Notes: generated from the sequence alone by a model not told the origin. Numbered from the stretch's first letter, positions 34,347 through 61,032 are shown. The stretch is DNA of 64,000 nucleotides from Eledone cirrhosa (GCA_964016885.1 OZ024752.1:18104001-18168000), one strand, 5' to 3'. A program made the numbers and translations.

Positions 34347-34485
34347 TATATACTTTCAGACGTTCAATCATCTGGCCGGAAGGTATACGTTGCTGACGAT
34401 AGCTAATAAGCTTGAAACTAGTACAGCGTTCCTTTGTCAGGGTTGAACAAATGAGCAACGATGGTTGCTAGACACTGTACGGCTT
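34347..34485. mobile_element. Right remainder of the palindromic Penelope-like element
   Basis: Reverse complement of 28621-28759. Confidence 0.85.
34372..34440 (+). ncRNA. Minimal type I hammerhead ribozyme
   Basis: ACGUUG (34387-92), CUGACGA (34393-99), U AGC UAAUAA GCU U, GAAA (34414-17), C UA, GUA (34421-23), then CAGCGU. Stem I extends through aagg/cctt and ctggc/gtcag. Confidence 0.8.
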
Positions 34486-34636
34486 AATTCGGGATGTTTG
34501 TTTACAAACACACCGAGCATTATAATAAATGTTCGGTGAATCCATACGTACATATATATATGTGTGCATGTATGTATATATATATATACATACTACTGTA
34601 CGTCTGTATACATATATGTATGTACGTATACATGCT

Positions 34637-34637
<1 letters not shown>

Positions 34638-34702
<65 letters not shown>
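34638..34702. repeat. (TA)n(GA)n microsatellite
   Basis: Directly visible. Confidence 0.95.
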
Positions 34703-34705
<3 letters not shown>

Positions 34706-35675: not shown

Positions 35676-38137
35676 CTACAAATCTGGCGAGCACATAAGC
35701 CAGATTGACTTCTTACTAGTTAGGCAGCGGGACAGGCAGAAAGTGTCTAATACCAAGGCATACCCTGGAGAAGAATGTACCCCACAGCATAGGTTAGTCG
35801 TTAGTGATATCTCAGTAAGCAAGAGGTGGAATGAGACATACAGGAAGGTGTGGAGAAGAAAGGTCTGGAAGCTAAAAGACCTTTCACTAAAATACAAATT
35901 TAGGAAAGCCCTTTAAGATGTGTATGATGAAAAAGAAGACGATTTAGAAACGTATGACATAGATAATAACTGGAATTTCTTACGTGACAACTTGCTGCAG
36001 GCTACTGATGAAACTTGTGGCTGGAGCAGAGCTCCAACCAGACAGAGAGTGACCTGGTGGTGGAACAGCACAGTAGATAAGGCCATTAGAAACAAAAGAC
36101 TAGCATGGAAGGCTTGGAAAAAGGGTGGGAGTAGGAAGAATATACAGCCACTAAGAGAGAAGCTAGTCAGGTGTACTTAGCATGCAGGGAGGCTGAGAGT
36201 AGGAGGTTTGCCAATGTTCTGCGACGGGAAGATCAGAGGCATGCGGTGTTCTGCATTGCAAGCCAGTGTGTCAGTGCAAATCAGGATGTTGTTGGAGATA
36301 AATGTGTCTGGAATGATGCTGGTGTACTTGGTGTCACAAATGATCAGAAAAAGGGGGCCTGGAAATGTCATTATGAGAGACTGATGAATGTGGGGAACGA
36401 ATGGAAGAGAGAGAAATTACCCTCAGTAGATCCGACAGAGGGACCAGCTATTGAGATTGACGAATATAGGGTCCAAGAGGCGATTAAGGAAATGAAAAAT
36501 GGTAAGGCTGCTGGACCATCGGGAATAGTTGCAGAGATGCTGAAGGCATAAGGGGACGTAGGCACTAAGCTGGTTGCACGCATCATCAATCAGGCTATAT
36601 ATGGTGGTGTCATACCCAAAGACTGGTGCAGCAGTATTCTCATAAATTGCTACAAAGGTAAAGGGGATGCTCTGGAGAGGAGCAATTATAGCGGTATAAA
36701 ACTGATGGATCAGGTTATGAAAGTGGCAGAAAGGATATTAGCACAACTAATTAGAGAAAGGGTCAAACTAGATGAGATGCAGTTTGGTTTTGTGCCTGGC
36801 AAGAGTACAACAGATGCCCTCTTCTTGGTGAGACATTGCAAGAGAGGTTATTAGAGAAAAATAAGCCACTATACTTAGCTTTCGTTGACCTAGAGAAGGC
36901 TTTGATAGGGTACCCCGATCTGTCATCTGGTGGTCCCTAAGGAAACTAGGTGTTGAGGAATGGCTTGTGAGGACAGTGCAAACTTTTTACAGAGTTACTG
37001 TCAGTAAAGTCAGGGTAGAAATGGAGTTTAGTGAGGAATTCCAGATACAAGTAGGAGTACATCAAGGTTCGGTTCTCAGCCCGCTCTTGTTCATTATAGT
37101 CCTCCAAGCCATAACAGAGGAGTTTAAGACTGGCTGTCCATGGGAACTTCTCTATGCTGACGATCTGGTTCTTATAGCAGAATCAGTAGAGGAGCTAGAG
37201 AATAAATTCTGGCTATGGAAACAGCAGTTGGAAGCAAGAGGACTGAGAGTGAACCTAGCTAAGACAAAAGTGTTGATGAGTAGAAAAAAGGACAAAACTC
37301 TGATTCCGTCAGGGAAATGGCTATGTTCGATATGCAGAAAATGAACTGGCATAAATTCTATAAAATGCACACAATGCAGATCCTGGGTACACAAGAGATG
37401 TAGCGGGATAGCAGGCAAACTAACAGGTAGGGAGAAATATGTATGCAGTAGATGTACAGGGAAATTAAACAGTAGAAGTCGCATTGATAGACACATTTTT
37501 CAAATGCAGGCGGGTGCTATAGAAGTGGTGGATAGCTTCCGGTACCTAGGAGATCAGATTAGCATGGGATGGGGGTGTTCCGAGGCCATAGTATCTAGAA
37601 TAAGGACGGGTTGGAAGAAGTTTAGGGAGCTGCTTCCTCTGCTGATGAAGAAGAGTTTCTCCCTGCGTACGAAAGGCCAGTTATATGCTGCCTGTGTGAG
37701 GAGCGCGATGTTGCATGGTAGTGAGACATGGGCAGCAACTGCAGACGATATGCAACGACTGGAGAGAAATGAGGCAAGCATGCTCCGTTGGATGTGCAGT
37801 GTCAATGTGCGTGAACGACCCAGCATGAATGTGTTGAGAGAGAAACTCTGTCTGAGAGGGATAGAATGTAGTGTACGGGAGAGGAGACTGAGGTGGTATG
37901 GACCTGTGATGCGCATGGAGAATGACCGATCGGTAAAGAAGTGCCAGGAAATGCCAGTTGAAGGAAGACGTGGTAGAGGTAGACCACGAAAAACATGGGC
38001 GGAGGTGGTGAGAACAGACCTCAGATCGCTGAAGCTCACGGTGGAGATGACGAAGGACCGTGACAAGTGGAGAGATGCTGTGCTGAATAAGCAGGGAAGA
38101 GTGGACGTAAAATGATGATGATGATGATGATGATGAT
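35676..38137 (+). mobile_element. RTE LINE, second subfamily, 5'-truncated and decayed
   Basis: Motifs VTWWWN, GKAAGPSGIVAEMLK, GVHQGSVLSPLLF, LLYADDL, LHGSETW, GRPRKTW and a (GAT)n tail. Confidence 0.92.
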
Positions 38138-38410
38138 ATACATCCCAAAAGTCAGCTCAAAAGTGACACAGAGGAGACTGAGGTTAGCTGGACATGCTCA
38201 CCGACATCCAGAGTTGACATTGCACTCAGTGCTCCTGTGGGAGCCCCTACATGGAAACACTGGAAGAGGAAGACCAAGGTTAACGTATGTTGATGCCCTA
38301 GTGACAGACACTGGTCTGTTGGAGACACAGGACATGGCAGCGATAATGAGGGACAGAGACCGCTGGAGAGAACTCGTCCATGGATCACGGGAATTTTACC
38401 CGCACTAGAA
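38138..38410 (+). mobile_element. 3' fragment of a different RTE-type LINE
   Basis: RRLRLAGHAHRH...LLWEPLHG..GRGRPRLTYVD...MRDRDRWR. Confidence 0.8.
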
Positions 38411-38604
38411 AATATATTTATATATATATATTTCCATATGTGGTTAATGGCTGAGAGAAAAAAGTACTCAATACTGAAGTAGAGTTTTAATATTCATTTT
38501 ATTAGGGTTAAATAAATAGTTCTTGCTTGATGACCCTGTGATAAACAGGTGAAACTCCAGAGTAACAAGACTCACTATTTAGCCTTAATGAAATGACTAT
38601 ATCA

Positions 38605-38900
38605 CGATGATGATCATCCTCATTGTCGTTTTTACATCTGCTTTTCCACGCTTGCATGGGTTGGACTGTGTGTGATCATGACCTTCTTCTGGAGGTCATG
38701 ATGATGACACAAGAAACCAAGAAAGACATGGGCAGAGCTGATAAAAGCTGGTCTCAAAGGAGAGAAAATTGTGGAAGAATGCTGTACCTGAGAGAACTTG
38801 TCTACTCCATGGAAGTATGGAAAAAACAGACAAGAAAACATTGATGACTGGCTGAATGTATCTTTGCTCAGACAACACAAATTTCTACTTGGTTTCACAA
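38605..38900 (-). mobile_element. Decayed RTE-like 3' fragment
   Basis: Has an RTE tail signature (ttttacatctgcttttccacgcttgcatgggttgg) and GC-richer remnant sequence. Confidence 0.45.
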
Positions 38901-39211
38901 CAGTATATTAAATGGCAGTGCTACTCTTCTGCTCACCATCAACTCTACTATCTTCTGTATTTGAGCGAAGTCATTTTGAGTAAAGCTAGAGCTGACAAGT
39001 TTATAGGCTGACCAAGATACTCTCATGGAATGACCAAATGAGGTTTATTTTTCAACATAGTCCCTGGAAATAAACAATACAGTTATTAATAAGAAGATTT
39101 GAAATTATTGCATGCAAGATTTCACAGCTCTAGCATCACTACTTGACAGTCGGCATATGAACTATTCAGCCACCACACGTACCACAGCCTGACTTATACA
39201 CGATATTGTTA

Positions 39212-39402
39212 TAATTGTTTCTACTTTTGGCACAAGGTCAGCAATTACCCAGTGTATTACTGGTACTTTATTTTATCGACCCCGTAAGGATGAAAGGCAA
39301 AGTTAACCTCGGCGGGATTTGAACTCAAAATGGCAAGGGCCGTAACTCTATGCTGCAAAGCATGGCGTCCGACCCTCTACCGATACTGCCAATCCACCGC
39401 CC
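39212..39402 (-). mobile_element. Most complete copy of the tRNA-head Nin-like SINE
   Basis: Minus strand reads ggcggtggattggcagtatcggtagag...gagttcaaatcccgccgagg...ggggtcgataaaataaagtaccag...agaaacaattat. Confidence 0.8.
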
Positions 39403-39884
39403 TATATTGTTATATATAATGATATTACACATATATGAAAAAAATTTCCCATTTCTTTCAATCTATCTATATTATAAAACAGAGTCTGTTTCACCTTCTA
39501 CCTGTCCGTAGAAGGATAGGAGGAGTGAAACGTTGTTGTTGTATATGTATATATCATGTAGAAACTGACATCACTTAAGCATCACTCAAAATGCACAAAA
39601 TTTTAACTTCGCTCAAACAACTGGACATGGTTGTAAAGTGGTTGGTATTAGGAAGTACATCTATCCTGTCCTAACTCGGTGACTAAACCAGCAACCTCAC
39701 CAAGCTTGTTTGGTGAGGAAGGTGATTTGGGACACCCTGTGAGATGAAAAACAAAACCTGTCAAAGGGCAGAAGAACTCAAAAGAGTCAACGTCCATCCA
39801 ATAGTGTGTAAATGTGTATATTTTGTGTGGGGGTGGGTGTGTATGGGATTGATTGCACATGTGTCTGTCTCTGTGTGTGTATAT

Positions 39885-42800
39885 GTGAAGGCTCGAATAC
39901 CATTTTGAGCCTGAGCAAAGTTAGATCATGCAGGCTTTCCCAAGCCACCAGCCTGGAGATGGAGTCCCAATGAAAAATACCAGGAAGGAAAACCTGTCAG
40001 AAACATGGAAAAACCAACAAGAGGGCGCTTAGAGGTCCTATCAACAATGCCTCCACCTATGGACTAGATAGAAGCTGTCTGTAGCTTTAAAATGGCCTGT
40101 ACAGTCTTGGCAACGCGCACTTGTATCCAGCCATCGAAAAAAGGGACTATTCATTGATTTGCACCAAGGTAAAAGCCCCTGTCTTAGCTGATTTTCCTGA
40201 AACTCGCACTTCATCCTCTGAGACCAATGACAGATCAGTCTTCAGCCTGGACTCATCTAAGCAGACTGTTCTTGATAGAGCAGAAGTTAGATTAAAACCT
40301 CTCCTAAAGTGTAAACACCCCGCTCGCTTTAGTACATTCAACGTCAATACCCTTGGTCCTCTAGGAAGACTTGATGAGCTAGTAATGAGCACTAGATCCA
40401 ACGCTATTGACGTCATCAGTCTTCAAGTGCATAGACATTTCCATCCAGATGTAGACCTAAAGTTTACAAAATCTGACAATTTCCAGCTTGTCACTGCCTC
40501 TGCATACAAAAACTCTAATGCCACCATTGGTGGAGTTGGTATGCTTCTCTCATCAAGGGCACATGAGAACATCATCAACATTGAAAACATAGATGATAGA
40601 ATAATGGTTGGCGAGTTCAATTCAAATCCCAAACTCACATATCTTGCTATAGCCCAACAAATAGCAGTGATGAAGAAACTGCTACCAGTTTCTATCAGGC
40701 TCTGAGATCAGTCATTGAAAACATCCCTGCCCCTAATTTCCTAACTATTGCTGGTGACTTCAATGTCAAGCTAGGCCCTGATGATGTAAAATTCACCTTC
40801 AACACCGAAACAAACCGAAATGGTGAAATACTTCTCCACCTCCTTGACGAATTTCAAATAGCTTCATGAAAGACCAATCCAAGCTCTGGTCAGTTACCTA
40901 CCCTAACGGTAGTAGAGTTCAATTAGATTATATCCTATCTCGGAAAAAATGGCAAAACAGTGTACACAACTCTGAAACCTATTCCTCCTTCTCGTGGGAT
41001 CTGATCACAGGATTGTCTCTTCCAAAGTTACTCTTAGCCTTCGCACTCCTAAGAAAGTCCCTGTTGGTCTTATGAAACAAATTAACTGGAGGTTGGTGTC
41101 ATCAAATAAGGAGCTCTCCAGCCGGTATGCAATTAGTTTCTATAATAGGTTCTCTGAACTATCCTGCACTGATGATTGCATTGAGACTAAATACTCCTAA
41201 TTGTTGCAAATGAAGAAGTTCCTCTTTCCAGCTTACCCAAAAAGACCAAAAGGAAGCTCACGATATTAAGCTCACTTATCTTAGTATCCTCAGCGCACAA
41301 AAAATTGCAAAGTCTTTTTTCTCAGTACAGCTCAAATCCAACTAGTTTACTGAAAAGCGAAATGACCCAATGCAAAAAAGACCTTGGTGAGGTGTACACA
41401 ACTGCTTTTGCAGAGTATGTAGAGGGAAAAATAAACAAACTTAAGACCTTTCATATAAACAAACAACACGCAGCTGCATGGGCTTTAATCAACAGAATAA
41501 CTGGCAGAAAAGAAAAGCCTTCACCCATCATCAAAGGAGGCTCTCAAGAAGCTACAAAAAAGAGCTGGACTGACCACTTCAAGGGTCTACTGGGTGAACC
41601 ATCTCCTGTAGGTGATTTACCAAAGTCTATGGTATCACCTGAACTCGACATCACTTAACTTTTCACCTTGAATGAGATCAACCAGGCGATCAAAACACTT
41701 GAAAAGAAAAAATCACCTGGTCTTGACAATATACCCAGTATAATTTGGAAAGACCCAAACCTTTGTTCAGTCCTATTATCAATCTGCAACGACACCTTAA
41801 ACAAGAAAACTCCTCCAAGTTGGCTAAAAACAGGTATATTTCCTGTCCCCAAAAAACGGTGACCTCTCATCCCTCTAAAACTACCAAGGAATATCACTTA
41901 TGCCCATTGCTGCCAAGATCTACAACAAGCTAATCCTCAACCGTATAGTTCCGTATGTTGATCCAATCCTCAGAGACATTCTGTTTGAAATTCTACCCTT
42001 GTATGGCATCCCAGTAATACCTATGGAAGCAATTAATACTCTGTATCTCAACACAAGTGTCACTATCATCACCCCTGATGGCTCAACAGAGTTCTTTGAC
42101 ATCTCAGCAGGAGTGCTGCAGGGTGACACTCTTGCCCCATACTTCCATATCATTGCACTAGACTACGCCCTGAGACTCTCAATTTACAAAATCAATAACA
42201 AAAGTATAAGCATGAGCTCTAGGCATCCCTCTAAACATCTTACTGACCTTGACTTAACGGATGACATTGCACTTCTTGCAGATTGACTAGAAAATTGTTT
42301 ACATCTCTCCAGGAAGCAGCCGCCCTCGTTGGCCTTCATCTCAATTAGGGTAAAACAGAGTACATCTCAACAACATCAAAGCAATCAATGGCAGTGATAT
42401 CAAGCAAGTCAAGGATTTCAAGTATCTTGGGTCCTGGATCATGGACTCTGAGAAGGATTTAGCTACCAGAAAGGTCTAAGTATGGTCAGCTTGCAACAAG
42501 ATGGATCGAGTTTGGTGCTCAAATATTTCCAACCACACCAAAATCAGACTCTTCCAAGTAACAATTCAACCAATCTTGCTATATGGAAGTGAAACATGGA
42601 CGCTTTCATCCAAACATCAAAAGCACCTTGATGGCACCTACACTCACCTGCTTCAACGCATTCACAACATAAGCTGGCGACATCTGACTTTGAAAGAAAT
42701 ATATGCCAGCCTCCCACGCATATCTGTCGTTGTACGTAAAAGAAGAGTAACATTTGCTGGCCACTGCCATCGTGCCACCTACGAGGCTGTGTCCTTATTA

Positions 42801-42976
42801 GTGATTAGGAAACCACAAACAGTCATTAATAGCAGGGGGAACAAGCTCTCCTATCCCGATGTCATCTCCAGAGATTCTGGTATTGAAATCCAGGATTTAG
42901 CAGCGGCAATGAATGACAGACCCACGTGGAGATCAATTGTTGAGTCGATATAATTTGAGGCCACCAGATGATGATG
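39885..42976 (+). mobile_element. RTE-type LINE, third family, with 5' UTR; internally deleted and decayed
   Basis: Motifs FSTFNVNTL, IGGVGMLL, QLDYIL, GSDHRIV, KSPGLDNIP, GVLQGDTLAP, DDIALL, LLYGSETW, FAGHCHR; short (gat)n end. Confidence 0.88.
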
Positions 42977-43656
42977 AAAAGGTAGTTAAAATGGTACTTC
43001 TATTGTTAACTATTCCTGTGTTTCTATTACATATGGAGTTTATCTTCTCTGTAAGACTACTGAAGATTCCACTACACCTTTTGGACACCCATAGTTTGTC
43101 TTTGGTACAGAGTATAGGGTTCCTATGAAAATATATATGATATATATCAATATGTGCATGAGTAGGTAAATATATGTAAGCATATGCACATGCATACACA
43201 TACACATGTATACACATGCACATGTATACAAGTACATACATGCATATGCACACACAAACACACATATAACATTTCTCAAAAATGTTATCTTCTTCGGCGA
43301 TGAATTTGTTTTGCAAGGTTTTTGATATGAAATCATGTGTTGAAACAAATATTGTTATATTTGGGGAGGGTCATGTTGTTATAATATTGACAGAAATATA
43401 TAGTAAAACACACTCACTGTTTGGTTTAGGTTGGTTTCACTTCAGTATATTTTATATTTCTATAATTAATTCAACTAGCAATCAATGTTTATCCTTGATT
43501 GATTAACAGTTAAATATATAGATATAAATATAGTTTCTCAGAGTTCTTTCATCACCGACCTGTGACATTATCAGTGATGTTATGCTTCCTCATGTATTGC
43601 TGTAATGTTTTCTTATTGTTCTTCATATTACTGATATAAATACAATTACTTTCCAG

Positions 43657-46600
43657 ACAAATGGCCATTCCATATTTCTCCAAGTCTGCCAGTTGTTTTA
43701 CCAAATAGAGTTAAAGAAATAAACCAATACCCTAGCCAGGCTTCTGAGGACTTCATATCTAATTCATTACCAACAACCAAAATTCAGCTGCCAGAAAATA
43801 TATCACAAATTGTTTCTATCAATCTATTTAAACAAATGAAACCTACAAACCAACCAATTGCAAGATATTCAAGAACAAGTGATGCCTATACACCAAATAT
43901 ACCAGGAGGGAAATACAGATTAGTGATGAGAAGTGGAATTGTTCCAGAGGTTGAAGATGAAGTCTTTTTACCAATATCTCCAACATCCTCACAGAATAAT
44001 GTAGGAACTATATTTCCAAGTTTGAAAACTGGAAATTGGATCAAGATGGATCCCAAAATTGAACAAGCTGAAAGAAATGTATTGAGAAAACGTTACAGAA
44101 AGTTAGATAAGAAGCAGATATTACTTGATAGAATGCCTATGGTAGTGCAAAGAATGAAACGAGATACTGAACAAACATTGACACGTGCAATGAAAGGGGT
44201 AGTACAAAGAATGTTAAAGGAAAATGGGATGCAATTAAAACCAAGGATAGCAGAGGAAATTATTAGAAAATCTACACAAGAAATAAAACCAAGGAATCCA
44301 AACAGAGAAACACTTGAGAAAGGCTCAATTCAAAGACTGTTACAAAAGCTAACAAAAAGAGCATTTTACAAAAGAATGCAGGGAATTGATAGAAAATTTA
44401 GGCAAGAAAAAAGGCAGAAAAGACATGCAAGAATGATGTTGAAAGAGACACGACAAGGAATATTACCAAGAACAAGACAATGGACATTACAACGGACAGT
44501 TCCAGGAAGAATCCCAAGTAAGGCACAAAATGTATTACTAAGAGATAGACTTGTATCAAGAATAGGGAGCACATTATTAACAGGATTAGAAGAAAAGATG
44601 TTGCATAAATCAATGCCAACGTTTGTGCCAGGGACTGTAAAAATCATGTCACCAGGCCAAGGAGAAAATATTCTGTCAAGAATAATTTATAGAAATTCAC
44701 CTGGAATAATGTATAGAAAGTATCCTGCAAATAGACAAAATATGTTACAAAGAATTAACTACCAAACAGTACCAGAAACTATCCTTATTAGTCTAAAAGA
44801 AACACCTTTGTCAACAATGTTGTACAAAGGGTTAACTAGAATTTACCATCCAAGGATATTAGTTGATAAGAAAGAGAATATAGTACTAAAACCAATTCCT
44901 AGAATATCACCAGAAATTGTTCCACCTATATTAGCTGCAGCAACTATAGGAAGCAGACTAAACCAAGACATCTTTTTATATCCTGCTAAAACATTGACTG
45001 GAAAACAAGTATTATTAATAGTACGAAACATGAACAAAGGAAATATTTTGCAGCCAATATCTGAAACTGCACAAGATACATTACCAGGAATGAACCTACT
45101 GATATTAAGTGGTGGTGGTGTTGGAAAAGACAGGCATATAGAAAACATTAATGGAATATCGCTGGAAAATTTAACGAAAAGGCTGCAACTAATACTAACA
45201 AGAACAGAGGAGCCAGAATTTATACAAAGAAGACTGAAGGATTTAATTACTGGGCGTAGTCATCTCTTTACAAGAGATTCCATGCAAACTATAGTTCCAT
45301 TAGCACATCAAATGACAATGAGGGACAAAGACATGGTACCAGGTATGGCTCCAAGACTAACTCAAGGATGGGAATCAGGTACTGGGAAGATTATAATTCC
45401 TAAAACAAAGTACTCAAATATACCAGCAAGGATACAAATGGTGCAACATCAAAGACCAGAAAGTGTACAAAGGGAAAATCCACATCCATACACTATTCAA
45501 TATGTGATGCCAGGAATCGTTCAAAATTTGATTCCAGCAATACCTAAAAGAATATTACCAGACAATATGCAATATATACTGCAGGGAAGAAATAAACAAT
45601 ACATGTTGAAAACTGATCGTGGTACAGAAAATAGGTACATTAATTTAGAACAAGATGGTACGGGAAAAAGTGAAGACAAAATAGCAGGTAAAATCAAAGA
45701 TGAAAATAAAGAAGAAATATTTAAAGGAAATTCTACATATTCATTGCAAAATATGTTGAAAGATTTGAAAAATAAGCTGGAAAGTCACATAGAAAATGGT
45801 AATATAGTGTCTAGAATTTTGACCGAAACATCTCCCAAAACAATTCAGACACCAATTAAATTGAAGGAAATTCTGTTTGCAAAAAAGAAAATTAGACTTC
45901 AAGGTACTGAAGATAGAATATCACTTGGAAGTGTACCACAGATGTTACCTGAAACTAGGCTATGGGTGTTACCTGGAACAGGGCAATTTATATTATCTGG
46001 AATTAGGCAAGGCATGTTACCTGGAATTAGGCAAGGCATGTTACCTGGAATTAAACAAGGCATGTTACCTGGAATTAGACAAGGGATGTTACCTGGGACA
46101 GAGCAAGGGATGTTACCTAGGACAGGACAACTGATGTTACCTGGGACAAAGCTGTTGATGTTACCTGGGACAGGAAAAAGGATATTACCTGTGACAGAGC
46201 TGTTGATATTACCTGGGACAGGACAATTGATGTTACCTGGGACAGAGCAAGGGATATTACCTGGGACAGGACAATTGATATTACCTGGGACAGGGCAATT
46301 GATGTTACCTGGGACAGAGCAAGGGACGTTACCTGGGACAGGACAATTGATATTACCTGGGACAGGGCAATTGATGTTACCTGGGACAGGGCAAGGGATG
46401 TTACCTGGGACAGGGCAATTGATGTTACCTGGGACAGAGCAAGGGACGTTACCTGGGACAGGACAATTGATGTTACCTGGGACAGGGCAATTGATGTTAC
46501 CTGGGACAGAGCAAGGGACGTTACCTGGGACAGGACAATTGATGTTACCTGGGACAGGGCAATTGATGTTACCTGGGACAGGGCAATTGATGTTACCTGG

Positions 46601-49600
46601 GACAGGGCAATTGATGTTACCTGGGACAGGGCAAGGGATGTTACCTGGGACAGGACAATTGATGTTACCTGGGACAGGACAATTGATGTTACCTGGGACA
46701 GGACAATTGACGTTACCTGGGACAGGGCAATTGATGTTACCTGGGACAGGGCAAGGGATGTTACCTGGGACAGGACAATTGACGTTACCTGGGACAGGGC
46801 AATTGATGTTACCTGGGACAGGGCAAGGGATGTTACCTGGGACAGGACAATTGACGTTACCTGGGACAGGGCAATTGATGTTACCTGGGACAGAGCAATT
46901 GACGTTACCTGGGACAGGGCAATTGATGTTACCTGGGACAGAGCAAGGGACGTTACCTGGGACAGGGCAATTGATGTTACCTGGGACAGAGCAAGGGACG
47001 TTACCTGGGACAGGGCAATTGATGTTACTTGGGACAGAGAAATTGATGTTACCTGGGACAGGGCAATTGACGTTACCTGGGACAGGGCAAGGGACGTTAC
47101 CTGGGACAGGGCAATTGATGTTACCTGGGACAGAGAAATTGATGTTACCTGGGACAGGGCAATTGATGTTACCTGGGACAGGGCAATTGATGTTACCTGG
47201 GACAGAGCAAGGGATGTTACCTGGGACAGGACAATTGATGTTACCTGGGACAGGGCAAGGGATGTTACCTGGGACAGAGAAATTGATGTTACCTGGGACA
47301 GGACAATTGATGTTACCTGGGACAGAGAAATTGATGTTACCTGGGACAGGGCAATTGATGTTACCTGGGACAGGACAATTGATGTTACCTGGGACAGAGA
47401 AATTGATGTTACCTGGGACAGAGCAAGGGACGTTACCTGGGACAGGGCAATTGATGTTACCTGGGACAGAGCAAGGGATGTTACTTGGGACAGGGCAATT
47501 GATGTTACCTGGGACAGGGCAATTGATGTTATCTGGGACAGAGAAATTGATGTTACCTGGGACAGGGCAATTGATGTTACCTGGGACAGGACAATTGATG
47601 TTACTTGGGACAGGGCAATTGATGTTACCTGGGACAGGACAATTGATGTTACCTGGGACAGGACAATTGATGTTACCTGGGACAGGGCAATTGATGTTAC
47701 CTGGGACAGAGCAAGGGACGTTACCTGGGACAGGGCAATTGATGTTACCTGGGACAGGGCAAGGGACGTTACCTGGGACAGGGCAATTGATGTTACCTGG
47801 GACAGGACAATTGATGTTACCTGGGACAGGACAATTGATATTACCTGGGACAGGGCAATTGATGTTACCTGGAACAGAGCAAGGGATGTTACCTGGGACA
47901 GGGCAATTGATGTTACCTGGGACAGGGCAATTGATGTTACCTGGGACAGGACAATTGATGTTACCTGGGACAGGGCAATTGATGTTACCTGGGACAGGAC
48001 AATTGATGTTACCTGGGACAGAGCAAGGGATGTTACCTGGGACAGAGAAATTGACGTTACCTGGGACAGGACAATTGATATTACCTGGGACAGGGCAATT
48101 GATGTTACCTGGGACAGAGCAAGGGATGTTACCTGGGACAGGGCAATTGATGTTACCTGGGACAGGGCAATTGATGTTACTTGGGACAGGACAATTGATG
48201 TTACCTGGGACAGAGCAAGGGACGTTACCTGGGACAGGACAATTGATGTTACCTGGGACAGGGCAATTGATGTTACCTGGGACAGGACAATTGATGTTAC
48301 CAGGGACAGAGCAAGGGACGTTACCTGGGACAGGGCAATTGATGTTACCTGGGACAGGGCAATTGATGTTACCTGGGACAGGACAATTGATGTTACCTGG
48401 GACAGAACAAGGGACGTTACCTGGGACAGGACAATTGATGTTACCTGGGACAGAGCAAGGGATGTTACCTGGGACAGGGCAATTGATGTTACCTGGGACA
48501 GGGCAAGGGACGTTACCTGGGACAGGGCAATTGATGTTACCTGGGACAGGGCAATTGATGTTACCTGGGACAGGACAATTGATGTTGTTACCTGGGACAG
48601 GGCAATTGATGTTACCTGGGACAGAGCAAGGGACGTTACCTGGGACAGGGCAATTGATGTTACCTGGGACAGGACAATTGATGTTACCTGGGACAGGACA
48701 ATTGATGTTACCTGGGACAGGGCAATTGATGTTACCTGGGACAGGGCAATTGATGTTGTTACCTGGGACAGGGCAATTGATGTTACCTGGGACAGAGCAA
48801 GGGACGTTACCTGGGACAGGGCAATTGATGTTACCTGGGACAGGACAATTGATGTTACCTGGGACAGGACAATTGATGTTACCTGGGACAGGGCAATTGA
48901 TGTTACCTGGGACAGGGCAATTGATGTTACCTGGGACAGGGCAATTGATGTTACCTGGGACAGGACAATTGATGTTACCTGGGACAGGACAATTGATGTT
49001 GTTACCTGGGACAGAGCAAGGGATGTTACCTGGGACAGGGCAAGGGACGTTCCCTGGGACAGAGCAAGGGATGTTACCTGGGACAGAGCAAGGGATGTTA
49101 CCTGGGACAGGACAATTGATGTTACCTGGGACAGAGCAAGGGATGTTACCTGGGACAGGGCAATTGATGTTACCTGGGACAGGGCAATTGATGTTACCTG
49201 GGACAGGACAATTGATATTACCTGGGACAGGGCAATTGATGTTACCTGGGACAGGAAAAAGGATGTTACCTGGGACAGAGCAAGGGACGTTACCTGGGAC
49301 AGGGCAATTGATGTTACCTGGGACAGGACAATTGACGTTACCTGGGACAGGACAATTGATGTTACCTGGGACAGGACAATTGATGTTACCTGGGACAGGG
49401 CAATTGATGTTACCTGGGACAGGACAATTGATGTTACCTGGGACAGGGCAATTGATGTTATCTAAAACTGGGCCAGGTATGTTATATGAGACTGAGCAAA
49501 GAGACTTATCTGGAACTAAACAAATTATGTTACCCGGAAATTGGGAAACAATGCTTTCAGAAACTGGGCAAAAAATATTACCTGGATATGGACCAGGAAT

Positions 49601-50823
49601 TTCCCTTGAAAATGGAAAAGAGATGTTATTTGGAACTGGGCAAAGGACATTTCCACAAATAATGCAAGGTATGTTACATGGAAATCAGAAAAAGGTGCTA
49701 CATGGACCTCACCAATGGATGTTACCTAAAAATATCCAACAGAAGTTTTTAAGAAATGAGCAAGGTATATTAGCAGGGCCTCTACAAAGGTTCTTACCTG
49801 GAAATGATCAAGGTATATTAGCAGGGCCTCTACAAAGGTTCTTACATAAAAGGGGACAAAAGATATCATCAAAAAATATCCAATTGATATCACCAGGATC
49901 TGGACAACTGGAACTTATATTACATAGAACTGGACAAGCAGTCTTACCAGGAAATGTACTTGGAACTGAACCAAGGAATGTACTTGGAACTGAATCAAGG
50001 AATGTACTTGGAACTGAACTAACGAATGTACTTGCAATTGAACGATGTGTGTTATCTGGAACAGGGCAAGAAATGTTACCATGTACTCTTCAAGGAGTGT
50101 TACCAGGAAATATACAATTTATGTTAACTGGAAATAAACTAATGCTGTTACCTAGATCACTGGTACGTAGAACTGGACAAGGGATGTTTGCTGGACTTGG
50201 GATATCAATATTACCTGGAACTGGGGCAGAGGAGTTAGCAGGGATTAGTCAAGAGAACTCACCTGAAATTATGAAATTGGGGTTACCAGGAAATGGGAAA
50301 AGAATATTACAAAGATATGGGGATGGACTGTTATCTGGAACTGGACAAGGGATGTTATTTGAAAATGACCAACATATGTTAGCAGGAAACGAGCAAGAGA
50401 TGTTGATTAGGAACGAACAGAGGACAATTCCAAACACAGAACCATATATAACACCAAGAATGATACAACAAATGAAAGAATTACCAGTAATAATTCTAAG
50501 GTTACCACAAAGAATAAATCCTATTATAAAGCTAAGAACATTGCCAGAGACAAAAGACAAACCACTCCCATGGACAGAACATAAGACACCAAGAATATTA
50601 CAGGAATTCTTTCAAGAAACATCACCCAGACCAATGTATGGAATGTTTACACAAACAAAAAATGGAATATCACCTGAAGCAAAATTACAAAATACAATGA
50701 AATCAATGTCAATTAACTCCCAAATGAGATTAAGGAATTTTCTAGAAGCTGGAAATAATAAACCAATTTTGACAGCATCTGCAGTGCAGCAACATATAGC
50801 AGCTGACTCTAAACCAAGAATAG
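43657..50823 (+). CDS. Giant 7,167-bp internal exon of an uncharacterised secreted repetitive protein
   Basis: Acceptor tttccag|ac at 43656/43657; the frame is open from there through the 2340-aa ORF; donor AG|GTAAGC at 50823/50824; phase 1 at both ends. Confidence 0.88.
45945..49460 (+). repeat. Coding tandem repeat, 24-bp unit TTACCTGGGACAGGGCAATTGATG (LPGTGQLM), about 146 copies
   Basis: Visible in both DNA and translation; the only indels seen are three 3-nt insertions (LLPG). Confidence 0.97.
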
Positions 50824-50838
50824 GTAAGCTGGCTTTTT

Positions 50839-51250
50839 ATACAAACGGGAGATGTTAAAAAGTTCCTGGATTTAGGCAAAATACAGGAGGATCAATTAAC
50901 CCTTTAGTATTTAAACCGGCCATATCCAGCCAGAATTCTCTCACCTCTTTCTCTTCAAACCAGTCATATCTGGCCAGAATTCTCTCACCTCTTTCTGTTC
51001 AAACTGGCCAGGTATTGTTCTTAAAATAAATGATATCAAAATCTCATAGATTCGATATTATGTAAGATAAAGCCTTTTCCGCAAAAATACAATAGTATAT
51101 ATAGAGTAATGTGAATGCTAAAGGGTTAATTATGATTTTATTCAACATATTCTCCTCTTTGATTCACACACTTATTACAGCGGTCCTACCTCTCCTGTAA
51201 AGGTAACAATTCTACCATTAAAGCCGGGAACTTTTCAGCACCCCCTTGTA
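50839..51250. mobile_element. Mariner-type MITE interrupted by a TTAA MITE (50896-51129)
   Basis: Ends ta-c...gttaaaaagttcc and ggaacttttcagcacccccttg-ta; the nested element has TTAA-CCCTTTAG / CTAAAGGG-TTAA ends. Confidence 0.65.
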
Positions 51251-51659
51251 CATACATACACACAAATGAGCGACTACACTATCGATAAAATGTTTTATCG
51301 GCAAAGTACAATGCATAGAACAGACAATTGTCTGTTTGATGTGACTGCAATAATTATGAACATCCAATTTATGTTGGCTTCAAATTACCCGGAATGCTTA
51401 AAGAAAATAAAAAATATTTTTTTTTTACTTTAGTTGAGCAAAGGAGCTAATTATTGTTTAAAACTGGAGATTATGTCCCCTGTTCTTATCTAGATCAATA
51501 GCTTAACTGAAGTTTTTGAATGTCCTATTGTATGGTCTCTTTTTATGTTATAGCCCTTCTTAAATTATGCTCCAAACATCATCATAATATTGGGAAAGTT
51601 ATATTACTTACCAAATCCCTTCAAATAGTTGATTATTTTTTTCAAAACTATTTGAAAAT

Positions 51660-51992
51660 CATAGGCAGTGTCTTTTATTAGAAATATGGTAACGAGAGGA
51701 TTAAAGACATAAGCAGTGTCTTTTATTAGAAATATGGTAATAAAAGAGTTAATGACATAGGCAGTGTCTTTCATTAGAAATATGATAATAAATGGGTTAA
51801 AGACATAGGCAATGTCTTTTATTAGAAATATGGTAACAAAAGGGTTAAAGACATAGGCAGTGTTTCATTAGAAATATGGTAATAAAAGAGTTAAAGACAT
51901 AGGCAGTGTCTTTCATTAGAAATATGATAATAAAAGAGTTAAAGACATAGGCAGTGTCTTTCATTAGAAATATGGTAATGAGTGGGTTAAAG
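51660..51992. repeat. Tandem array, ~48-bp unit, about 7 copies, resembling a MITE terminus
   Basis: acataggcagtgtcttttattagaaatatggtaacaaaagggttaaag repeated. Confidence 0.85.
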
Positions 51993-53065
51993 TAAAATAA
52001 ATGCAGCTAAGTACTGAAAACTGTTTAACAGACAGCTCACCAAAAGTTTACATCAACTCCACAAACCTTGTTTAAATGATGTCAATAATTACATGAAGTT
52101 TTGTTATCACAATCTACAGATTGTATATAATTAGAATTTGTTTCCTTTATTCCATTAGCCACTAACTCAACAGAGCAGAATATTGCTGAAGGGGTGAAGG
52201 CTTCAGTTTCAATCACCAGTATCACATCACCATATTTTTGGACAATATATATTATTCTACTTGCCTTATTCCACCTGGTTGGAATGTAGATATATATCTT
52301 ACTTTAAGATAAAGCATTAGAAAAAGTGTGAGTATCTAGCCATAAAATACTTGCTTAACCCATTTGATTCCAAAATGCCTGAAACCGGCTCTGGTTCTAC
52401 AGTACAAAACTGTTTAGTTTAGCCCCTTGGCATTTACATTACTCTATATATACTATTGTATTTTTATGGTAAAGACTTTATCTTGCATAATTATCTCAAA
52501 TAATATCGAATCTATGAGATATTGATGTTATTCATTTTGAGAACAATACCTTAATGTCAGTATGAGTGGCCAGTTACGGCTGGTTTGAACAGAAAGAGGT
52601 GAGAGAATACAGGCCAGATATGGCTGGTTTAAATGCTAAAGTTAACCCATTTAATTCCAAAATGCCAGAAAGTGGCTCTGGTTCCGTTTAGTTTAAAGCA
52701 TATTTATCTAAAGAATGTTCCGTCATAACTATATGTAAGAACCTTTAAGTTATCTTCCAAACATCAGCCTAGTACTGGTTTTTGATTTAGGCACAAGGTC
52801 AACAATTTGGCGGGGATTAACTGCTGGTACTCACTCTCAGCTGAGTGCCCTCGAGAAATGTGGATTAACGTATTTTGTTCAAGAACACAATGCAGCACCC
52901 TGTTCAAGAATTGAACCGATGACATGATCATGTCTAGCATCCTAACCATTAGGCCATGGAACTTCACTTGATTGATACTTTATTTTATTGACTCTGGAAG
53001 GATGAAAGGTAAAGTTGACCTCAGTGGAATTTGAACTCAGGAACAAATATTAATTTGTCCAACAC

Positions 53066-53271
53066 TTAACTCTTTAGCATTTAAACTGGCCATATCCGAC
53101 TAGAGTCTCTCACCTCTTTCTGTTTAAACCAGCTGTAAATGGCTGCTCATACTGATGTTAAAGAATTATTCTCAACATCTCAGATTTAATATGAGATAAT
53201 TATGTAAGATAAAGCCTTTACTACAAAAATACAATAGTATATATAGAGTAACGTAAATACTAAAGGGTTAA
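53066..53271. mobile_element. TTAA MITE, main family (other copies at ~23040-23234, 52420-52645, 54190-54405, 56639-56826, 57995-58172)
   Basis: Same TIRs and body as 3468-3648. Confidence 0.8.
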
Positions 53272-53549
53272 AGAACTCTGCCAATAATGGTTTCTAATTT
53301 ATGCACAAGGCCAACAATATGGGAGAGGAGAAAGTTGATTAAATCAATCCTAGTGCATTACTAGTCCTTTATTTTATCAATCCCAAAAAGATGAAAGGCA
53401 AAGCTAACCGTGGCAAGACTTGAACCCAGAACTCTGTCAAAAATAAAATGATAGAAATAAGCTTACATTGCTGGGCTCAAATTCTCCAATGAGTAAAGTT
53501 TCTGATAGATTGGCTTACTGTCCAGATGAAAAATTGTGTCTCAATCCTT

Positions 53550-54090
53550 CTTCCTCCTACTTCTTCACCCGCTTATTCCTGAGAGGTTTGTGGGGGCAGT
53601 CCTCAAACACTCCTTCCAGCGGGTCCTGTCAGAAGCAACCATGTCCAATTACAATGACTTGATCCCCAAGCTTATGTATGTTATCCAACCATCTTGTTTG
53701 GGTCTCCTGCAGGTTAGTTTTGCCTGTAAAATCTGTCCAGTGATTTTTTCCTGAGACATTCAAACCAAATGCCCATATTATCGTAGCTGCCATCTCTCAA
53801 TTAGAAGTAGCGGCTCTCTGATCTCCTAGCTACGCACTTTATCAAGTAACGTTATTCCAAAAACCTTTTGGAGGAACCCCATTTCGGCCACTTACATTCT
53901 TTCGGTCATTACCCAAGATTCATGACCATAGGTAAGGGTTGGCACGAATACCAAATTGAAGATAGCGAGTTTGGCTTTTACACCTACTTCCCTCTTTCTG
54001 ATTACTGAATGCTGAAGCCGATGCATTACTGCACCAGCTCCCGCAATTCTTGCACTTAATTCAGCCTCTTGCCTTCCATCACTCGTGAAT
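53550..54090 (-). mobile_element. RTE LINE 3' fragment
   Basis: DGRQEAELSARIAGAGAVM...KAKLAIFNLVFVPTLTYGHESWVMTERM. Confidence 0.8.
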
Positions 54091-54740
54091 CCCTTCATTA
54101 TTAAAATAAAATGGATAAGTGCCAGTTCACTATAAAATGTTCTCGTTATCATCATCCTTAACTGCAGTGACAATGGTGATATCATTCATTTAACCCTTTA
54201 GCATTTATTTACTTTTGTATTTTCACGGTAAAAGCTTTACCTCACTTATTATCTCACATAATATCGAATCTATGAGATTTTGATATTATTTATTTTAAGA
54301 ACAATACCTTAACATCAGTATGAGTGGCTGGTTGTAGCCGGTTTGAACAGAAAGAGGTGAGAGAATTCTGGCCTGATACTGCTGGTTTAAATGTTGAAGG
54401 GTTAATATCCATTTTCCCTGCTAACAAGACATGTATAAGAGAAAGTCCATTGATTTTTTTTTTCAACATCCAGTTTTTTTAAATATGGATTAGATGATGG
54501 CCAAGCAAAAATATTTGCAAAGAGATTGTTGGGGTAAGTGTTTTAAAATGGAAGTTCTATTAAAATTAGAAGAAGAATCACAAGTCTAAAACTAGACAGA
54601 TTCAATGCATAACTTTTTAATAAGTAAATTGGCAACAGAGCCTCACAACTTGGGTTTCTTTAAATATATACAGCTTTTCTATATTAACTTATATATCTGC
54701 CAAAATTACTGGATAAAGTTGCTATTCTATTTTTCTCCAG

Positions 54741-56131
54741 ATAACTTGGTATTGCCAGTGAAGGGTATCTATATGCGAAAAATCCTACCATCTTCAAACC
54801 ATGAAAATACTTCCAGGAATCCAAGGAATTTAAAACAAATAACTCCTCATAAAAAACTGAAGATCTTTAAAAGATCTTTGTTTCAAAACCATACCACTCC
54901 AGATGCACATCTCAAAACACCAAGTGGTTTAAAAAACAACACAATAAATTCCACCAATTCCAAAACGCCAAAATTAACAATAATCAACAAACCAAATTAC
55001 AAACTAAAAGCTATTTTAAAATCATTTTCTGGTCAAAAATCTAATATACAGATGTCTGATAATGGTTTTAAAATGAATTCAAAAACAAACACATCCCACC
55101 AACAAAGAATAGCTAATTTGAAAACGTCATCTCCTAAAATGATCAATAAAATTCCAAATACCGATACTGATATAAAGCTAACTGAAAATGGTAGCTACAT
55201 ATCAGATATGTCAAATAATATCTATAAAAACCCTTCCACTAGATACAAATCTTACACACTAAGAAAAAGAAACAAAAGATTTCCTAGATTATCAGCCAAT
55301 CCATATGAATCGGATCCACTGGAATTATCTCAATATCATCCTTTGAAAATTCCTTCCGCTTATTATGGATACAATATTCCAAGAATAGAACCAGGCAATC
55401 TTTTAAAAAAACCTACATTAGTTTCATACAATACCAATACTCTAAAAAATATACCAAAACAATTTGCACCTGCTTCATTGGTTCAGTATGATTCCAACAA
55501 AAAATCAAACAAGTTTTTCATGTTGCCATTCCACCATAGAAGAATAGTACCAAGTTCTATTTTTGAAGTCCCATCTAATGCCTACATATTTTATATCATA
55601 AATACTTTAATAAACAAGCCCTCAGGTATGTCAGTATCAAAATATATACTTGATTCACCAGAAGTAATGCAAAAAATAAGTTTGAGAAACAAAAAAACTG
55701 AATTGAAAATGATGACAAATAGACAGGTAAAACCTCTGTCAGGTAAATACCAAATAGAAAATCCAAATAACTCACCTTATAGATATAGAGCTTTCCTACT
55801 GAACATGGAGTCCAATGAAAACTATAAAACACCCAAATATAATCCCTTTATTCCAGGACTGGTGCCAACAATTCTTCCTAAAATGCCCATTTATGGGTAT
55901 AAACTTTATACGGGAAAAAATGTGGCAAATGATATTTTTAGAAATGTGTTACCTGCAGCATACACAAAAGAACAAAAGCCACTTGTGCTATTTAAAATTC
56001 AACCATCTGTACCTAACATAATTCATGAAATGGAAGTAGGAAACTTTCAAGAGCCTACTGCTAAATATGACCCCTATATAATGAAACAAAAACTCAACTA
56101 TCAGGAGCCACCAACTGGCAGTGCCAGCTAG
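54741..56131 (+). CDS. Terminal exon of the repeat protein (basic, K/N/P/Y/S-rich, low complexity)
   Basis: Acceptor ttttctccag|at is phase 1 and joins 50823 in frame (PRI-D-NLVLPVKG). The frame is open to TAG at 56131. Confidence 0.82.
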
Positions 56132-56519
56132 TGGAAAGCCATTATATATGACAAGGAAACTGGCATCAAACCAATTTGGAACTTACATGCAAGGGAACAT
56201 GTTACATAAACATTATAGAAAACAAAATACTACAGTACTGTCATTACATGATCCTAAAAATAAATTAAATATTTTGAATTTTATTAACTTAAATCATGCA
56301 AATAGAATGAAACCAAATATTACAAATGCTTATATGTCAAATATTATACCAAGATCAAATAATCTTAAGAGAAGAAAACCAAAAACAGTTAGCAAAGCAG
56401 CTGTAATGATGATTAAAAGAAAGTATTCAGATGGTATAGATTTGAATTTAACTTCTACAACAAAACCTTGTGTAAAAGCTATATATTCATTACAAAATAA
56501 ACAAAGTAATTCTTGTTGA
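56118..56519 (+). CDS. Probable frameshifted continuation of the terminal exon
   Basis: An overlapping +1-frame ORF of 132 aa with the same composition; AATAAA at about 56577 follows its stop. Confidence 0.55.
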   Translation, partial: AVPASGKPLYMTRKLASNQFGTYMQGNMLHKHYRKQNTTVLSLHDPKNKLNILNFINLNHANRMKPNITNAYMSNIIPRSNNLKRRKPKTVSKAAVMMIKRKYSDGIDLNLTSTTKPCVKAIYSLQNKQSNSC

Positions 56520-57109
56520 ATAATTATGATTCATGTGAATATAACCACAATAGATATAAATATATATTTCTTAGAAAATAAACACCGACACCCCCATATA
56601 TATATATATGTATAATTTATTTATTTATAGTCATTATATTAACCCATTAGCATTTACATTATTCTATATTCACTATTGTATTTTCATGGTAAAGGATCTA
56701 TCTCAATATTGAATGTATGAGATTTTGATATTTATTTTGAGAACAATACATTAACGTCAGTATGAGTGGCTGGTTTGAACAGATGGAGGTGAGAGAATTC
56801 TGGCTGGTTTAAATGGTAAAGGCTAAATAGTGAGTCTTGTTACTTTGGAGTTTCACATGTTTATCACAGGGTCATTAATATACATACATTAACATGATAC
56901 AAATTTATTTCTTAGAAAATATAACTCACACATACATTAAGATATGGTAGAAATAAAATTATACAAAGAATACATTCATACTTACAAACACATATATATG
57001 TGTGTCAGTAACAACATTCATGCAGGCTAATGGCCAATATATTTATTGCTGTCCTATATTGAAACGTTTGTAGAGTTAAATCATGTAAGTCTAAACCGGT
57101 TATTCATTA

Positions 57110-58191: not shown

Positions 58192-61032
58192 GACCAAATA
58201 TCTGAGAATGTTGGTTTCTACAGATAAGACTGGTACCACATCAAATGTCTGAGAATGTTGGTGTTTACAGACAAGACTGGTACCACATCAAATATCTGAA
58301 AATGTTGGTTTCTACAGACAAGACTGGTACCACACCAAATGTCTGAGAATGTTGGTGTTTACAGACAAGACTGGTACCACATCAAATATCTGAGAATGTT
58401 GGTTTCTACAGACAAGACTGGTACCACATCAAATGTCTGAGAATGTTGGTTTCTACAGACAAGACTGGTACCACATCAAATGTCTGAGAATGTTGGTTTC
58501 TACAGATAAGACTGGTACCACATCAAATGTCTGAGAATGTTGGTGTTTACAGACAAGACTGGTACCACATCAAATATCTGAGAATGTTGGTTTCTACAGA
58601 CAAGACTGGTACCACATCAAATATCTGAGAATGTTGGTTTCTACAGACAAGACTGGTACCACATCAAATGTCTGAGAATGTTGGTTTCTACAGATAAGAC
58701 TGGTACCACATCAAATGTCTGAGAATGTTGGTGTTTACAGACAAGACTGGTACCACATCAAATATCTGAGAATGTTGGTTTCTACAGACAAGACTGGTAC
58801 CGCATCAAATATCTGAGAATGTTGGTTTCTACAGACAAGACTGGTACCACATCAAATGTCTGAGAATGTTGGTGTTTACAGACAAGACTGGTACCACATC
58901 AAATATCTGAGAAGGTTGGTTTCTACAGACAAGACTGGTACCACATCAAATATCTGAGAATGTTGGTGTTTACAGACAAGACTGGTACCACATCAAATGT
59001 CTGAGAATGTTGGTTTCTACAGATAAGACTGGTACCACATCAAATGTCTGAGAATGTTGGTTTCTACAGACAAGACTGGTACCAGATCAAATGTCTGAGA
59101 ATGTTGGTTTCTACAAACAAGACTGGTACCACATCAAATGTCTGAGAATGTTGGTTTCTACAGATAAGACTGGTACCACATCAAATATCTGAGAATGTTG
59201 GTGTTTACAGACAAGACTGGTACCACATCAAATGTCTGAGAATGTTGGTTTCTACAGTCAAGACTGGTACCACATCAAATGTCTGAGAATGTTGGTTTCT
59301 ACAGACAAGACTGGTACCACATCAAATGTCTGAGAATGTTGGTTTCTACAGACAAGACTGGTACCACATCAAATGTCTGAGAATGTTGGTTTCTACAGAT
59401 AAGACTGGTACCACATCAAATGTCTGAGAATGTTGGTGTTTACAGACAAGACTGGTACCACATCAAATATCTGAGAATGTTGGTTTCTACAGACAAGACT
59501 GGTACCGCATCAAATATCTGAGAATGTTGGTTTCTACAGACAAGACTGGTACCACATCAAATGTCTGAGAATGTTGGTGTTTACAGACAAGACTGGTACC
59601 ACATCAAATATCTGAGAAGGTTGGTTTCTACAGACAAGACTGGTACCACATCAAATATCTGAGAATGTTGGTGTTTACAGACAAGACTGGTACCACATCA
59701 AATGTCTGAGAATGTTGGTTTCTACAGATAAGACTGGTACCACATCAAATGTCTGAGAATGTTGGTTTCTACAGACAAGACTGGTACCAGATCAAATGTC
59801 TGAGAATGTTGGTTTCTACAAACAAGACTGGTACCACATCAAATGTCTGAGAATGTTGGTTTCTACAGATAAGACTGGTACCACATCAAATGTCTGAGAA
59901 TGTTGGTTTCTACAGACAAGACTGGTACCAGATCAAATGTCTGAGAATGTTGGTTTCTACAAACAAGACTGGTACCACATCAAATGTCTGAGAATGTTGG
60001 TTTCTACAAACAAGACTGGTACCACATCAAATGTCTGAGAATGTTGGTTTCTACAGATAAGACTGGTACCACATCAAATATCTGAGAATGTTGGTGTTTA
60101 CAGACAAGACTGGTACCACATCAAATGTCTGAGAATGTTGGTTTCTACAGACAAGACTGGTACATCAAATATCTGAGAATGTTGGTGTTTACAGACAAGA
60201 CTGGTACCACATCAAATATCTGAGAATGTTGGTTTCTACAGACAAGACTGGTACCACATCAAATGTCTGAGAATGTTGGTGTTTACAGACAAGACTGGTA
60301 CCACATCAAATATCTGAGAATGTTGGTTTCTACAGACAAGACTGGTACCCGATCAAATGTCTGAGAATGTTGGTTTCTACAGACAAGACTGGTACCACAT
60401 CAAATATCTGAGAATGTTGGTGTTTACAGACAAGACTGGTACCACATCAAATGTCTGAGAATGTTGGTTTCTACAGACAAGACTGGTACCACATCAAATA
60501 TCTGAGAATGTTGGTGTTTACAGACAAGACTGGTACCACATCAAATGTCTGAGAATGTTGGTTTCTACAGACAAGACTGGTACCACATCAAATATCTGAG
60601 AATGTTGGTGTTTACAGACAAGACTGGTACCACATCAAATGTCTGAGAATGTTGGTTTCTACAGATAAGACTGGTACCACATCAAATATCTAGAATGTTG
60701 GTTTCTACAGACAAGACTGGTACCACATCAAATATCTGAGAATGTTGGTGTTTACAGACAAGACTGGTACCACATCAAATATCTGAGAATGTTGGTTTCT
60801 ACAGACAAGACTGGTACCACATCAAATGTCTGAGAATGTTGGTGTTTACAGACAAGACTGGTACCACATCAAATATCTGAGAATGTTGGTTTCTACAGAC
60901 AAGACTGGTACCACATCAAATATCTGAGAATGTTGGTGTTTACAGACAAGACTGGTACCACATCAAATATCTGAGAATGTTGGTTTCTACAGACAAGACT
61001 GGTACCATATCAACTGCCTGAGAATGTTGGTT
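58192..61032. repeat. Minisatellite, 47-bp unit TCTGAGAATGTTGGTTTCTACAGACAAGACTGGTACCACATCAAATG, about 60 copies
   Basis: Period 47 (58201, 58248, ...), no spacers. Confidence 0.97.

Follow-up and report, generated by a model that had tools for sequence, protein, structure and literature searches.

The 64,000-nucleotide stretch of Eledone cirrhosa DNA analysed here (OZ024752.1:18104001-18168000; hereafter the window) is AT-rich and abounds in microsatellites, remnants of long interspersed nuclear elements (LINEs) and a Ty3/Gypsy-type pol remnant, a repeat landscape resembling that of octopod genomes. On its plus strand we predict a gene of three coding exons, joined by phase-1 introns, for a protein of 2,871 residues as assembled (~310 kDa), the middle of which is a long array of octapeptides of the LPGTGQLM type. 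In sequence terms the gene is an orphan, and its product is probably secreted.

Gene model and octapeptide array

An open reading frame (ORF) scan of the window gave a stop-free frame on the plus strand at 43635-50858, and splice signals, namely a YAG acceptor and an AG/GTAAGC donor in phase 1-1, bound exon 2 within it at 43657-50823 (7,167 nt). Its N-terminal flank (43657-45944, +) comprises 762 residues with no Cys, a net charge of +60, an isoelectric point (pI) of 10.3 and a faint 8-residue periodicity from about residue 250 onwards. The array proper (45945-49457, +), a coding 24-bp minisatellite of 146 units, follows with 1,171 residues and a net charge of -17, its core homogeneous and its left edge degenerate, and the C-terminal flank (49458-50823, +), recognised by its open frame, stop avoidance and periodicity, adds 455 residues of degenerate octapeptides with 2 Cys and a net charge of +15, up to the donor at 50824. 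Beyond intron 2 (50824-54740, +; 3.9 kb, phase 1, predicted from its splice signals and holding dispersed and tandem repeats), frame A of exon 3 (54741-56131, +) encodes 463 residues rich in K, N, P, S and Y, with a net charge of +44. Exons 2 and 3 together carry a net charge of +102 at a pI of 9.96, with 2 Cys in the 2,871 residues. An AlphaFold2 single-sequence model of exon 3 gave no fold, at a predicted local distance difference test score (pLDDT) of 34.9, a result that is uninformative without an alignment. Three R-X-K-R sequences are candidate furin sites by pattern, at which cleavage may occur: RMKR/DTEQ (44151-44162, +), RQKR/HARM (44412-44423, +) and RNKR/FPRL (at 55268); they stand at P 0.035 against block shuffles, under a narrow pattern picked after the sites had been seen.

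As assembled, exon 3 stops at a TAG at 56129-56131, and the +1 frame is open over 56085-56519 (+), a switch of frame being placed near 56085-56115 or, more narrowly, near 56095-56115. This shifted tail of 144 open codons is basic and K/N-rich, with a net charge of +20 and 2 Cys, which would bring the protein to 4 in all. Scored with the codon usage of the gene's other parts, the tail reaches 0.31, as compared with -0.17 to -0.76 for 18 control frames; 20,000 shuffles yielded no open frame, and in composition it agrees with exon 3. The frameshift may be an assembly error or a truncating allele. An AATAAA at 56577-56582 (+), after the stop of the shifted frame B, may serve as the poly(A) signal; two more, at 56259 and 56496, lie inside the tail frame.

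Within 43657-56519 no signal peptide is found, the best 9-residue hydropathy in the first 120 residues being 1.74. Hydropathy and splice rules do, in turn, predict a first coding micro-exon further upstream (24328-24389, +; phase 1), with a T-rich acceptor, an ATG at 24332, four bases in, the signal-peptide-like sequence MKQVILFLGFFSQINLATF and a GTAAGT donor at 24390. It has the top 8-residue hydropathy (3.04) among the ATG-led frames behind 160 upstream donors scanned, and in a further scan, over both strands, the other nine of ten micro-exon candidates did not exceed 1.51. It would splice in frame to 43657 over intron 1 (24390-43656, +), 19.3 kb filled with transposons, in which a self-similarity map and Pfam matches on ORFs (RVT_1, RNaseH, rve, PHD) mark LINE remnants and the Ty3/Gypsy-type pol remnant; the predicted 2,871 residues result from this junction. 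The micro-exon emerged at a donor cut-off of 1, its donor scoring 1.5 on a rough matrix; a stricter exon scan, at a cut-off of 3, returned nothing. TATA-like sites upstream of 24328 are not distinguishable from the AT-rich background. An AT-rich tandem repeat of 32-bp period, its units including TATA-like ones (24027-24277), ends 50 bases 5' of the micro-exon acceptor, and a broken LINE copy ends some 10-70 bases from its donor.

The 24-bp unit has 121 matches at 3 or fewer mismatches, vs 0 in 100 shuffles. Exactly 77 of the 146 units read LPGTGQLM (80 when three with an extra Leu are included), and 123 fit L-P-G-T-[G/E]-[Q/K]-[L/G]-[M/T]; Gly takes the place of Leu7 in 38. In composition the array has 24.5% Gly, 22% Leu, 14% Thr, 12% Pro, 11% Gln and 9.6% Met, with no Ala, no Cys and no GG, and aromatics at 0.3%.

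A preliminary description, made by a model from the sequence, had already recognised much of this. In particular, its 7.2-kb single exon is recovered with splice signals at both ends, its array of about 1,170 residues nearly free of aromatics and Cys is as it said, and its suggestion that the protein is secreted gains from the predicted signal-peptide exon, which lies outside the range it covered. Elsewhere it was right in part. Its count of about 146 octapeptides stands, their identity as LPGTGQLM only in the 77 units given above; of its multibasic sites RQKR is canonical and RKRYRK is not an R-X-K/R-R site; and the basic K/N/P/Y tail with RKRNKR does exist, as a separate exon 3.9 kb downstream and after 455 residues of degenerate repeats. 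Likewise, its protein of about 3,000 residues ending at 56519 is longer than the one assembled, and it is the +1 frameshift that would carry the product to that position.

Selection on the flanks and expansion of the array

The evidence for selection comes from the flanks and not from the array. The N-flank, C-flank and exon 3 keep 760, 454 and 462 codons open in AT-rich DNA (log10 P -27, -15 and -15), and the 18 degenerate units to the right of the array have taken 184 substitutions with 0 stops vs 9.3 expected, none of 20,000 simulations being stop-free; at the left edge of the array there are 0 stops vs 3.8 expected (P 0.017). These long open frames and stop-free degenerate units are the reason why we regard the flanks as selected. 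What is more, the 8-residue periodicity runs on outside the array, with z 6.7 over residues 251-520, z 4.7 over residues 521-782 and z 18.5 in the first 330 residues past the array; exon 3 has none (z -0.1). Because the flanks are periodic and the degenerate units avoid stops, the view of the preliminary description that an old periodic protein underwent a recent, homogenising expansion stands, as far as sequence can tell.

A different fate befell its argument that selection on the protein is visible in the array itself, namely in indels that are all 3 nt long and in a TGA that closes another frame. The consensus unit leaves four of six frames open, and at least four are open in 13,740 of 20,000 shuffled 24-mers as well. 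Among the distinct core variants, 3 are synonymous and 10 non-synonymous, where the sites stand at 5.7 and 18.3; this is the neutral ratio. All three 3-nt insertions add TGT at an identical position of the unit, and two of them belong to a duplicated block of 171 nt whose copies differ by 1 mismatch; a single event probably accounts for them. On these three counts the argument fails. Two non-coding minisatellites of the window, at 12575-16678 (32 bp x 129) and 58195-61032 (47 bp x 60.5), served as controls for indel size: in their 7.3 kb, five of seven distinct events break the frame, vs none of one in the 3.5-kb coding array, a contrast that agrees with the earlier argument but does so weakly, as about 2.4 would be expected.

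Sequencing contigs from three runs, all of one sample and one study, were compared over 43290-45930. They cross the intron-exon boundary, in other words they behave as DNA, and each run has one contig of flat depth over the N-flank, with no second copy at 80% likeness. Two of the runs hold a second N-flank allele, with 4 substitutions and no indel. The substitutions, 2 synonymous and 2 non-synonymous against 486 and 1,785 sites, are not numerous enough for a test, and the window itself may derive from this very sample. The segment at 43290-43600, over which contig depth rises to as much as ~5e5, is a genomic repeat of very high copy number; about 50 bases separate its end from the acceptor of exon 2.

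Across the array three further frames stay open, at 45899-49684 (-), 46117-49461 (-) and 46121-49465 (+), with 1,114-1,261 codons each. Their repeats NINCPVPG, ITSIALSQ and DRAIDVTW are by-products of the 24-bp unit and could mislead gene callers. In particular, the antisense NINCPVPG frame of 1,261 codons is rejected as a gene: it meets 3 stops in the right degenerate units, and in the N-flank no minus frame has fewer than 17.

Relatives and possible function

No credible homologue was found, in libraries that may contain few cephalopod proteins, and the preliminary description was to this extent supported in calling the protein unrecognised and lineage-specific. The N-flank (760 residues) had 0 matches among 1.84 billion representatives, exon 3 had none among 2,540 longer and 1,972 near-length candidates, and the array end with the C-flank drew one of 8,000 scored candidates, P0001 (E 2.3e-4, 29% over 35%). 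P0001, a 574-residue metagenomic protein with PG[LT]GQL-type repeats of its own of about 20 residues, was rejected as a homologue; it is a convergent, compositional look-alike with a different repeat. The ESM Atlas yielded nothing usable, its clusters at 0.77 and 0.75 being unnamed; none of 260 pattern matches in metagenome contigs was confirmed; PDB sequences gave one match, at E 0.37, and Pfam gave nothing credible in five segments. The Cornifin/SPRR family (PF02389) reaches E 6e-17 on the whole protein, with 0 stretches passing alone and no Cys in the array, and is a summed low-complexity artefact. As for the motif, it is absent from the supplements of PMC10336842 (8,877 characters) and PMC10138644 (3.96 million characters); LPGTGQ, PGTGQL, GTGQLM and LPGTEQ were found in no paper of the literature searched, and LPGTG occurs in none of the best 20 of 6,206 literature matches.

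Judged by its sequence, the protein is not an abductin, elastin, reflectin, suckerin, collagen, octovafibrin, SepECP or gel-forming mucin, because it fails a defining feature of each that could be tested. Reflectins carry the motif [M/F]D-X5-MD, of which it has 0 matches; suckerins combine GGY modules with Ala/His-rich beta blocks, and here GGY is missing and His and Ala amount to 0.9% and 1.7%; no run of five or more collagen Gly-X-Y triplets occurs. The preliminary description had set the motif apart from these three families, and rightly so. Gel-forming mucins have VWD and cystine-knot domains around a Ser/Thr-rich Pro/Thr/Ser (PTS) repeat, and no Pfam match to such domains was obtained, Ser and Thr together making up 14% of the array. 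Molluscs also have lineage-specific secreted proteins with repetitive, low-complexity domains, and it is with these that the protein would belong in kind, having a predicted signal peptide, tandem low-complexity repeats, a large repeat exon and no detected homologues in common with them. It differs from them in its motif, which we have not found described, in its size and in its cationic ends around a near-neutral core.

The egg-case proteins SepECP1/2 of Sepia officinalis are cationic (+70 and +42), with 50-55 Cys in three Cys-rich domains and no repeated sequence (PMC4500399); the present protein resembles them in its predicted secretion and strong net positive charge and departs from them in its 2 Cys and 146 repeats. 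Octovafibrin, from the egg thread of Octopus bimaculoides, has 29 EGF domains and two C-type lectins and is disulphide-rich (PMC10336842). A tandem-repeat secreted structural protein of octopod eggs, it resembles the present one in its repeats and predicted secretion and differs in that 2 Cys and no EGF or C-type lectin Pfam family in four segments are found here.

We give roughly an even chance to the view that this is a lineage-specific secreted block protein, cationic-hydrophobic-cationic, of a gland secretion, condensing with acidic polysaccharide into a cement, gel or coat. The sequence shows a signal-peptide-like first exon, cationic Cys-poor ends and a near-neutral Pro-Gly repeat core rich in aliphatic residues and Met, which has expanded of late through unequal exchange of a 24-bp unit that the flanks already held. 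The product would enter the secretory pathway, be trimmed at the R-X-K-R sites by a convertase and be stored concentrated in granules. On release, the basic ends would bind acidic or sulphated polysaccharide, which amounts to complex coacervation, and the repeat core would associate hydrophobically through turn and short-strand contacts. A cement, gel or coat held together without covalent bonds would be the outcome, neither a disulphide-linked fibre nor a rubber, in which the length of the repeat region would weigh more than the exact repeat sequence. The leading candidate for the tissue would be the oviducal gland with its egg cement, the alternatives being the spermatophore wall and skin or sucker secretions. 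In octopods, the egg cement forms when a mucoprotein from the peripheral gland polymerises with a sulphonated mucopolysaccharide from the central gland (PMC8976471); the peripheral granules are strongly eosinophilic, those of the central gland are acidic, and only within pH 5.5-9 is the coat stable (PMC13336147). Cuttlefish egg-case proteins are likewise cationic (PMC4500399). One can go further and suggest, as an unlikely conjecture, a furin-trimmed octopod egg-cement protein (or one of a like two-component cephalopod glue). Complex coacervation with an acidic polysaccharide supplied by a second gland would let it set under seawater, and beta-contacts of its Met-rich octapeptides would then stiffen it, without Dopa (3,4-dihydroxyphenylalanine), His-metal or disulphide chemistry.

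Several points weigh against the block-protein view. The splicing of the gene is a prediction, and its expression and tissue are conjectural. The signal peptide was called by a simple hydropathy rule, on a short hydrophobic core of 8 residues, the last exon as assembled is frameshifted, and no purifying selection is visible in the core array at the level of amino acids. Widened to R-X-K/R-R, the furin pattern shows no enrichment (P 0.19). Finally, the oviducal gland matches as a fit and not as a link, the cited passages of the gland papers naming no such protein (PMC8976471, PMC13336147). If expressed, the gene would nevertheless put a definite sequence and a novel repeat motif to a secreted material of cephalopods, and would supply a testable candidate for the egg cement, the histology of which has been described since 1975 with no protein named in those same passages.

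Would the protein make better sense as a mucin-like glycoprotein? Thr occupies position 4 in 142 of the 146 units, next to Pro-Gly, and if Thr4 (in some units also Thr8) were O-glycosylated, the array would become a hydrated bottle-brush for mucus or slime, anchored by its basic ends; the flanks, moreover, hold 10 N-X-S/T sequons. However, mucin PTS domains contain about 40% Ser+Thr, far above the 14% of the array, in which Leu+Met account for 32%, and there is no VWD, cystine-knot or SEA domain by Pfam and hardly any Cys. Although the egg slime of octopods has been termed a mucoprotein (PMC8976471), we consider this explanation unlikely.

Somewhat more doubtful is a near-neutral bloom of a minisatellite in a tolerant disordered protein, or a decaying gene, the repeat then having no special material function. 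The neutral spectrum of variants and the four open frames speak for this, as do the two similar-sized non-coding minisatellites, which indicate that the genome makes such arrays freely, and the frameshift in the last exon. Against it, both flanks keep the 8-mer register of the array, which is therefore old there, and keep it free of stops; frame-breaking indels are missing from the array, the weak contrast already given; and the second allele is intact in the N-flank. Were the bloom the right answer, the locus would be an ordinary case of fast repeat turnover in a tolerant orphan protein.

An entropic elastomer like elastin or abductin, in which the Pro-Gly core would coacervate above a lower critical solution temperature and Lys or Met would form cross-links, was among the proposals of the preliminary description and has lost ground, to the point of being improbable; a coacervate or an adhesive, its other two proposals, would still be plausible. 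With elastin and elastin-like polypeptides (VPGXG) the array does share periodic Pro-Gly, aliphatic residues and an uncharged core, its charge being low overall. That said, its repeat is an octapeptide with Thr, Gln and Met, there are no Lys-Ala cross-link blocks, no sequence similarity to elastin was found, and VPGXG-type units are absent from the array, the 3 VPG of the whole protein all lying outside its units. In addition, its 2P+G of 0.484 falls short of the 0.60 that marks the threshold for elastomers, beneath which ordered aggregates can arise (PMC7061623). Abductin, of the scallop hinge (GGFGGMGGGX), is likewise molluscan, secreted and built on a Met-rich repeat, and the Lys-Met sulfilimine cross-links proposed for it (PMC9999432) would find Met at 9.6% and Lys-rich ends here. 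Yet the 116 mature residues of abductin are 58% Gly and 1% Pro, with GG blocks (PMC9999432), vs 24.5% Gly, 12% Pro and 0 GG or Ala in the present array, within a protein of 2,871.

Least probable of all is a beta-solenoid with a strand G-Q-L-M in each unit and Pro-Gly-Thr turns, forming a rigid rod or curli-like fibre with ladders of Thr, Gln and Met. Pro stands in nearly all units and 38 of 146 replace Leu7, a likely core residue, by Gly, which speaks against it. AlphaFold2, run on 13 aligned array and flank segments, did place a strand every 8 residues (pLDDT 66.8, predicted template modelling score 0.58), with four of five models at 63-67. The array model has the shape of beta-solenoids such as the RTX beta-roll, CsgA curli and beta-helical antifreeze proteins (Z 9-11), its best structural matches being RTX (Z 11.0, root-mean-square deviation (rmsd) 2.1 over 94), TibA (Z 10.7), an Antarctic antifreeze protein (Z 9.9) and CsgA (Z 9.3, rmsd 8.5). 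The composition below the elastomer threshold points the same way. However, identity to these proteins is 7-13%, the array lacks the calcium-binding Asp of RTX, and Foldseek gave no match at E <=0.001. AlphaFold2 is, moreover, known to turn perfect repeats, random ones included, into beta-solenoids that score as confident yet are unrealistic (PMC11795689). Lying between elastomeric and amyloid-prone compositions, the motif offers a natural test both of the Pro/Gly rules and of this solenoid bias.

Other elements in the window

The Ty3/Gypsy-type remnant inside predicted intron 1 lies at 30083-33101 (-), with RVT_1, RNase H and integrase domains; to either side of it, at 28621-29116 and 34117-34485, are repeated segments, part direct and part inverted. 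Broken LINE copies, recognised by endonuclease, reverse transcriptase and PHD-finger matches, are found at 19528-22623 (+), 24463-28073 (-), 35632-38115 (+) and 40091-42953 (+). Near the start of the window there are two full-length 5S ribosomal RNA-like copies, at 5808-5926 (-) and 10135-10253 (-), scoring 91.2 and 76.7 bits; they sit in a duplicated stretch (5757-6048 and 10081-10380) and are probably pseudogenes or 5S-derived repeats. Between them, at 6400-9410 (+), lies a GC-rich (51-59%) broken retroelement with RVT_1.

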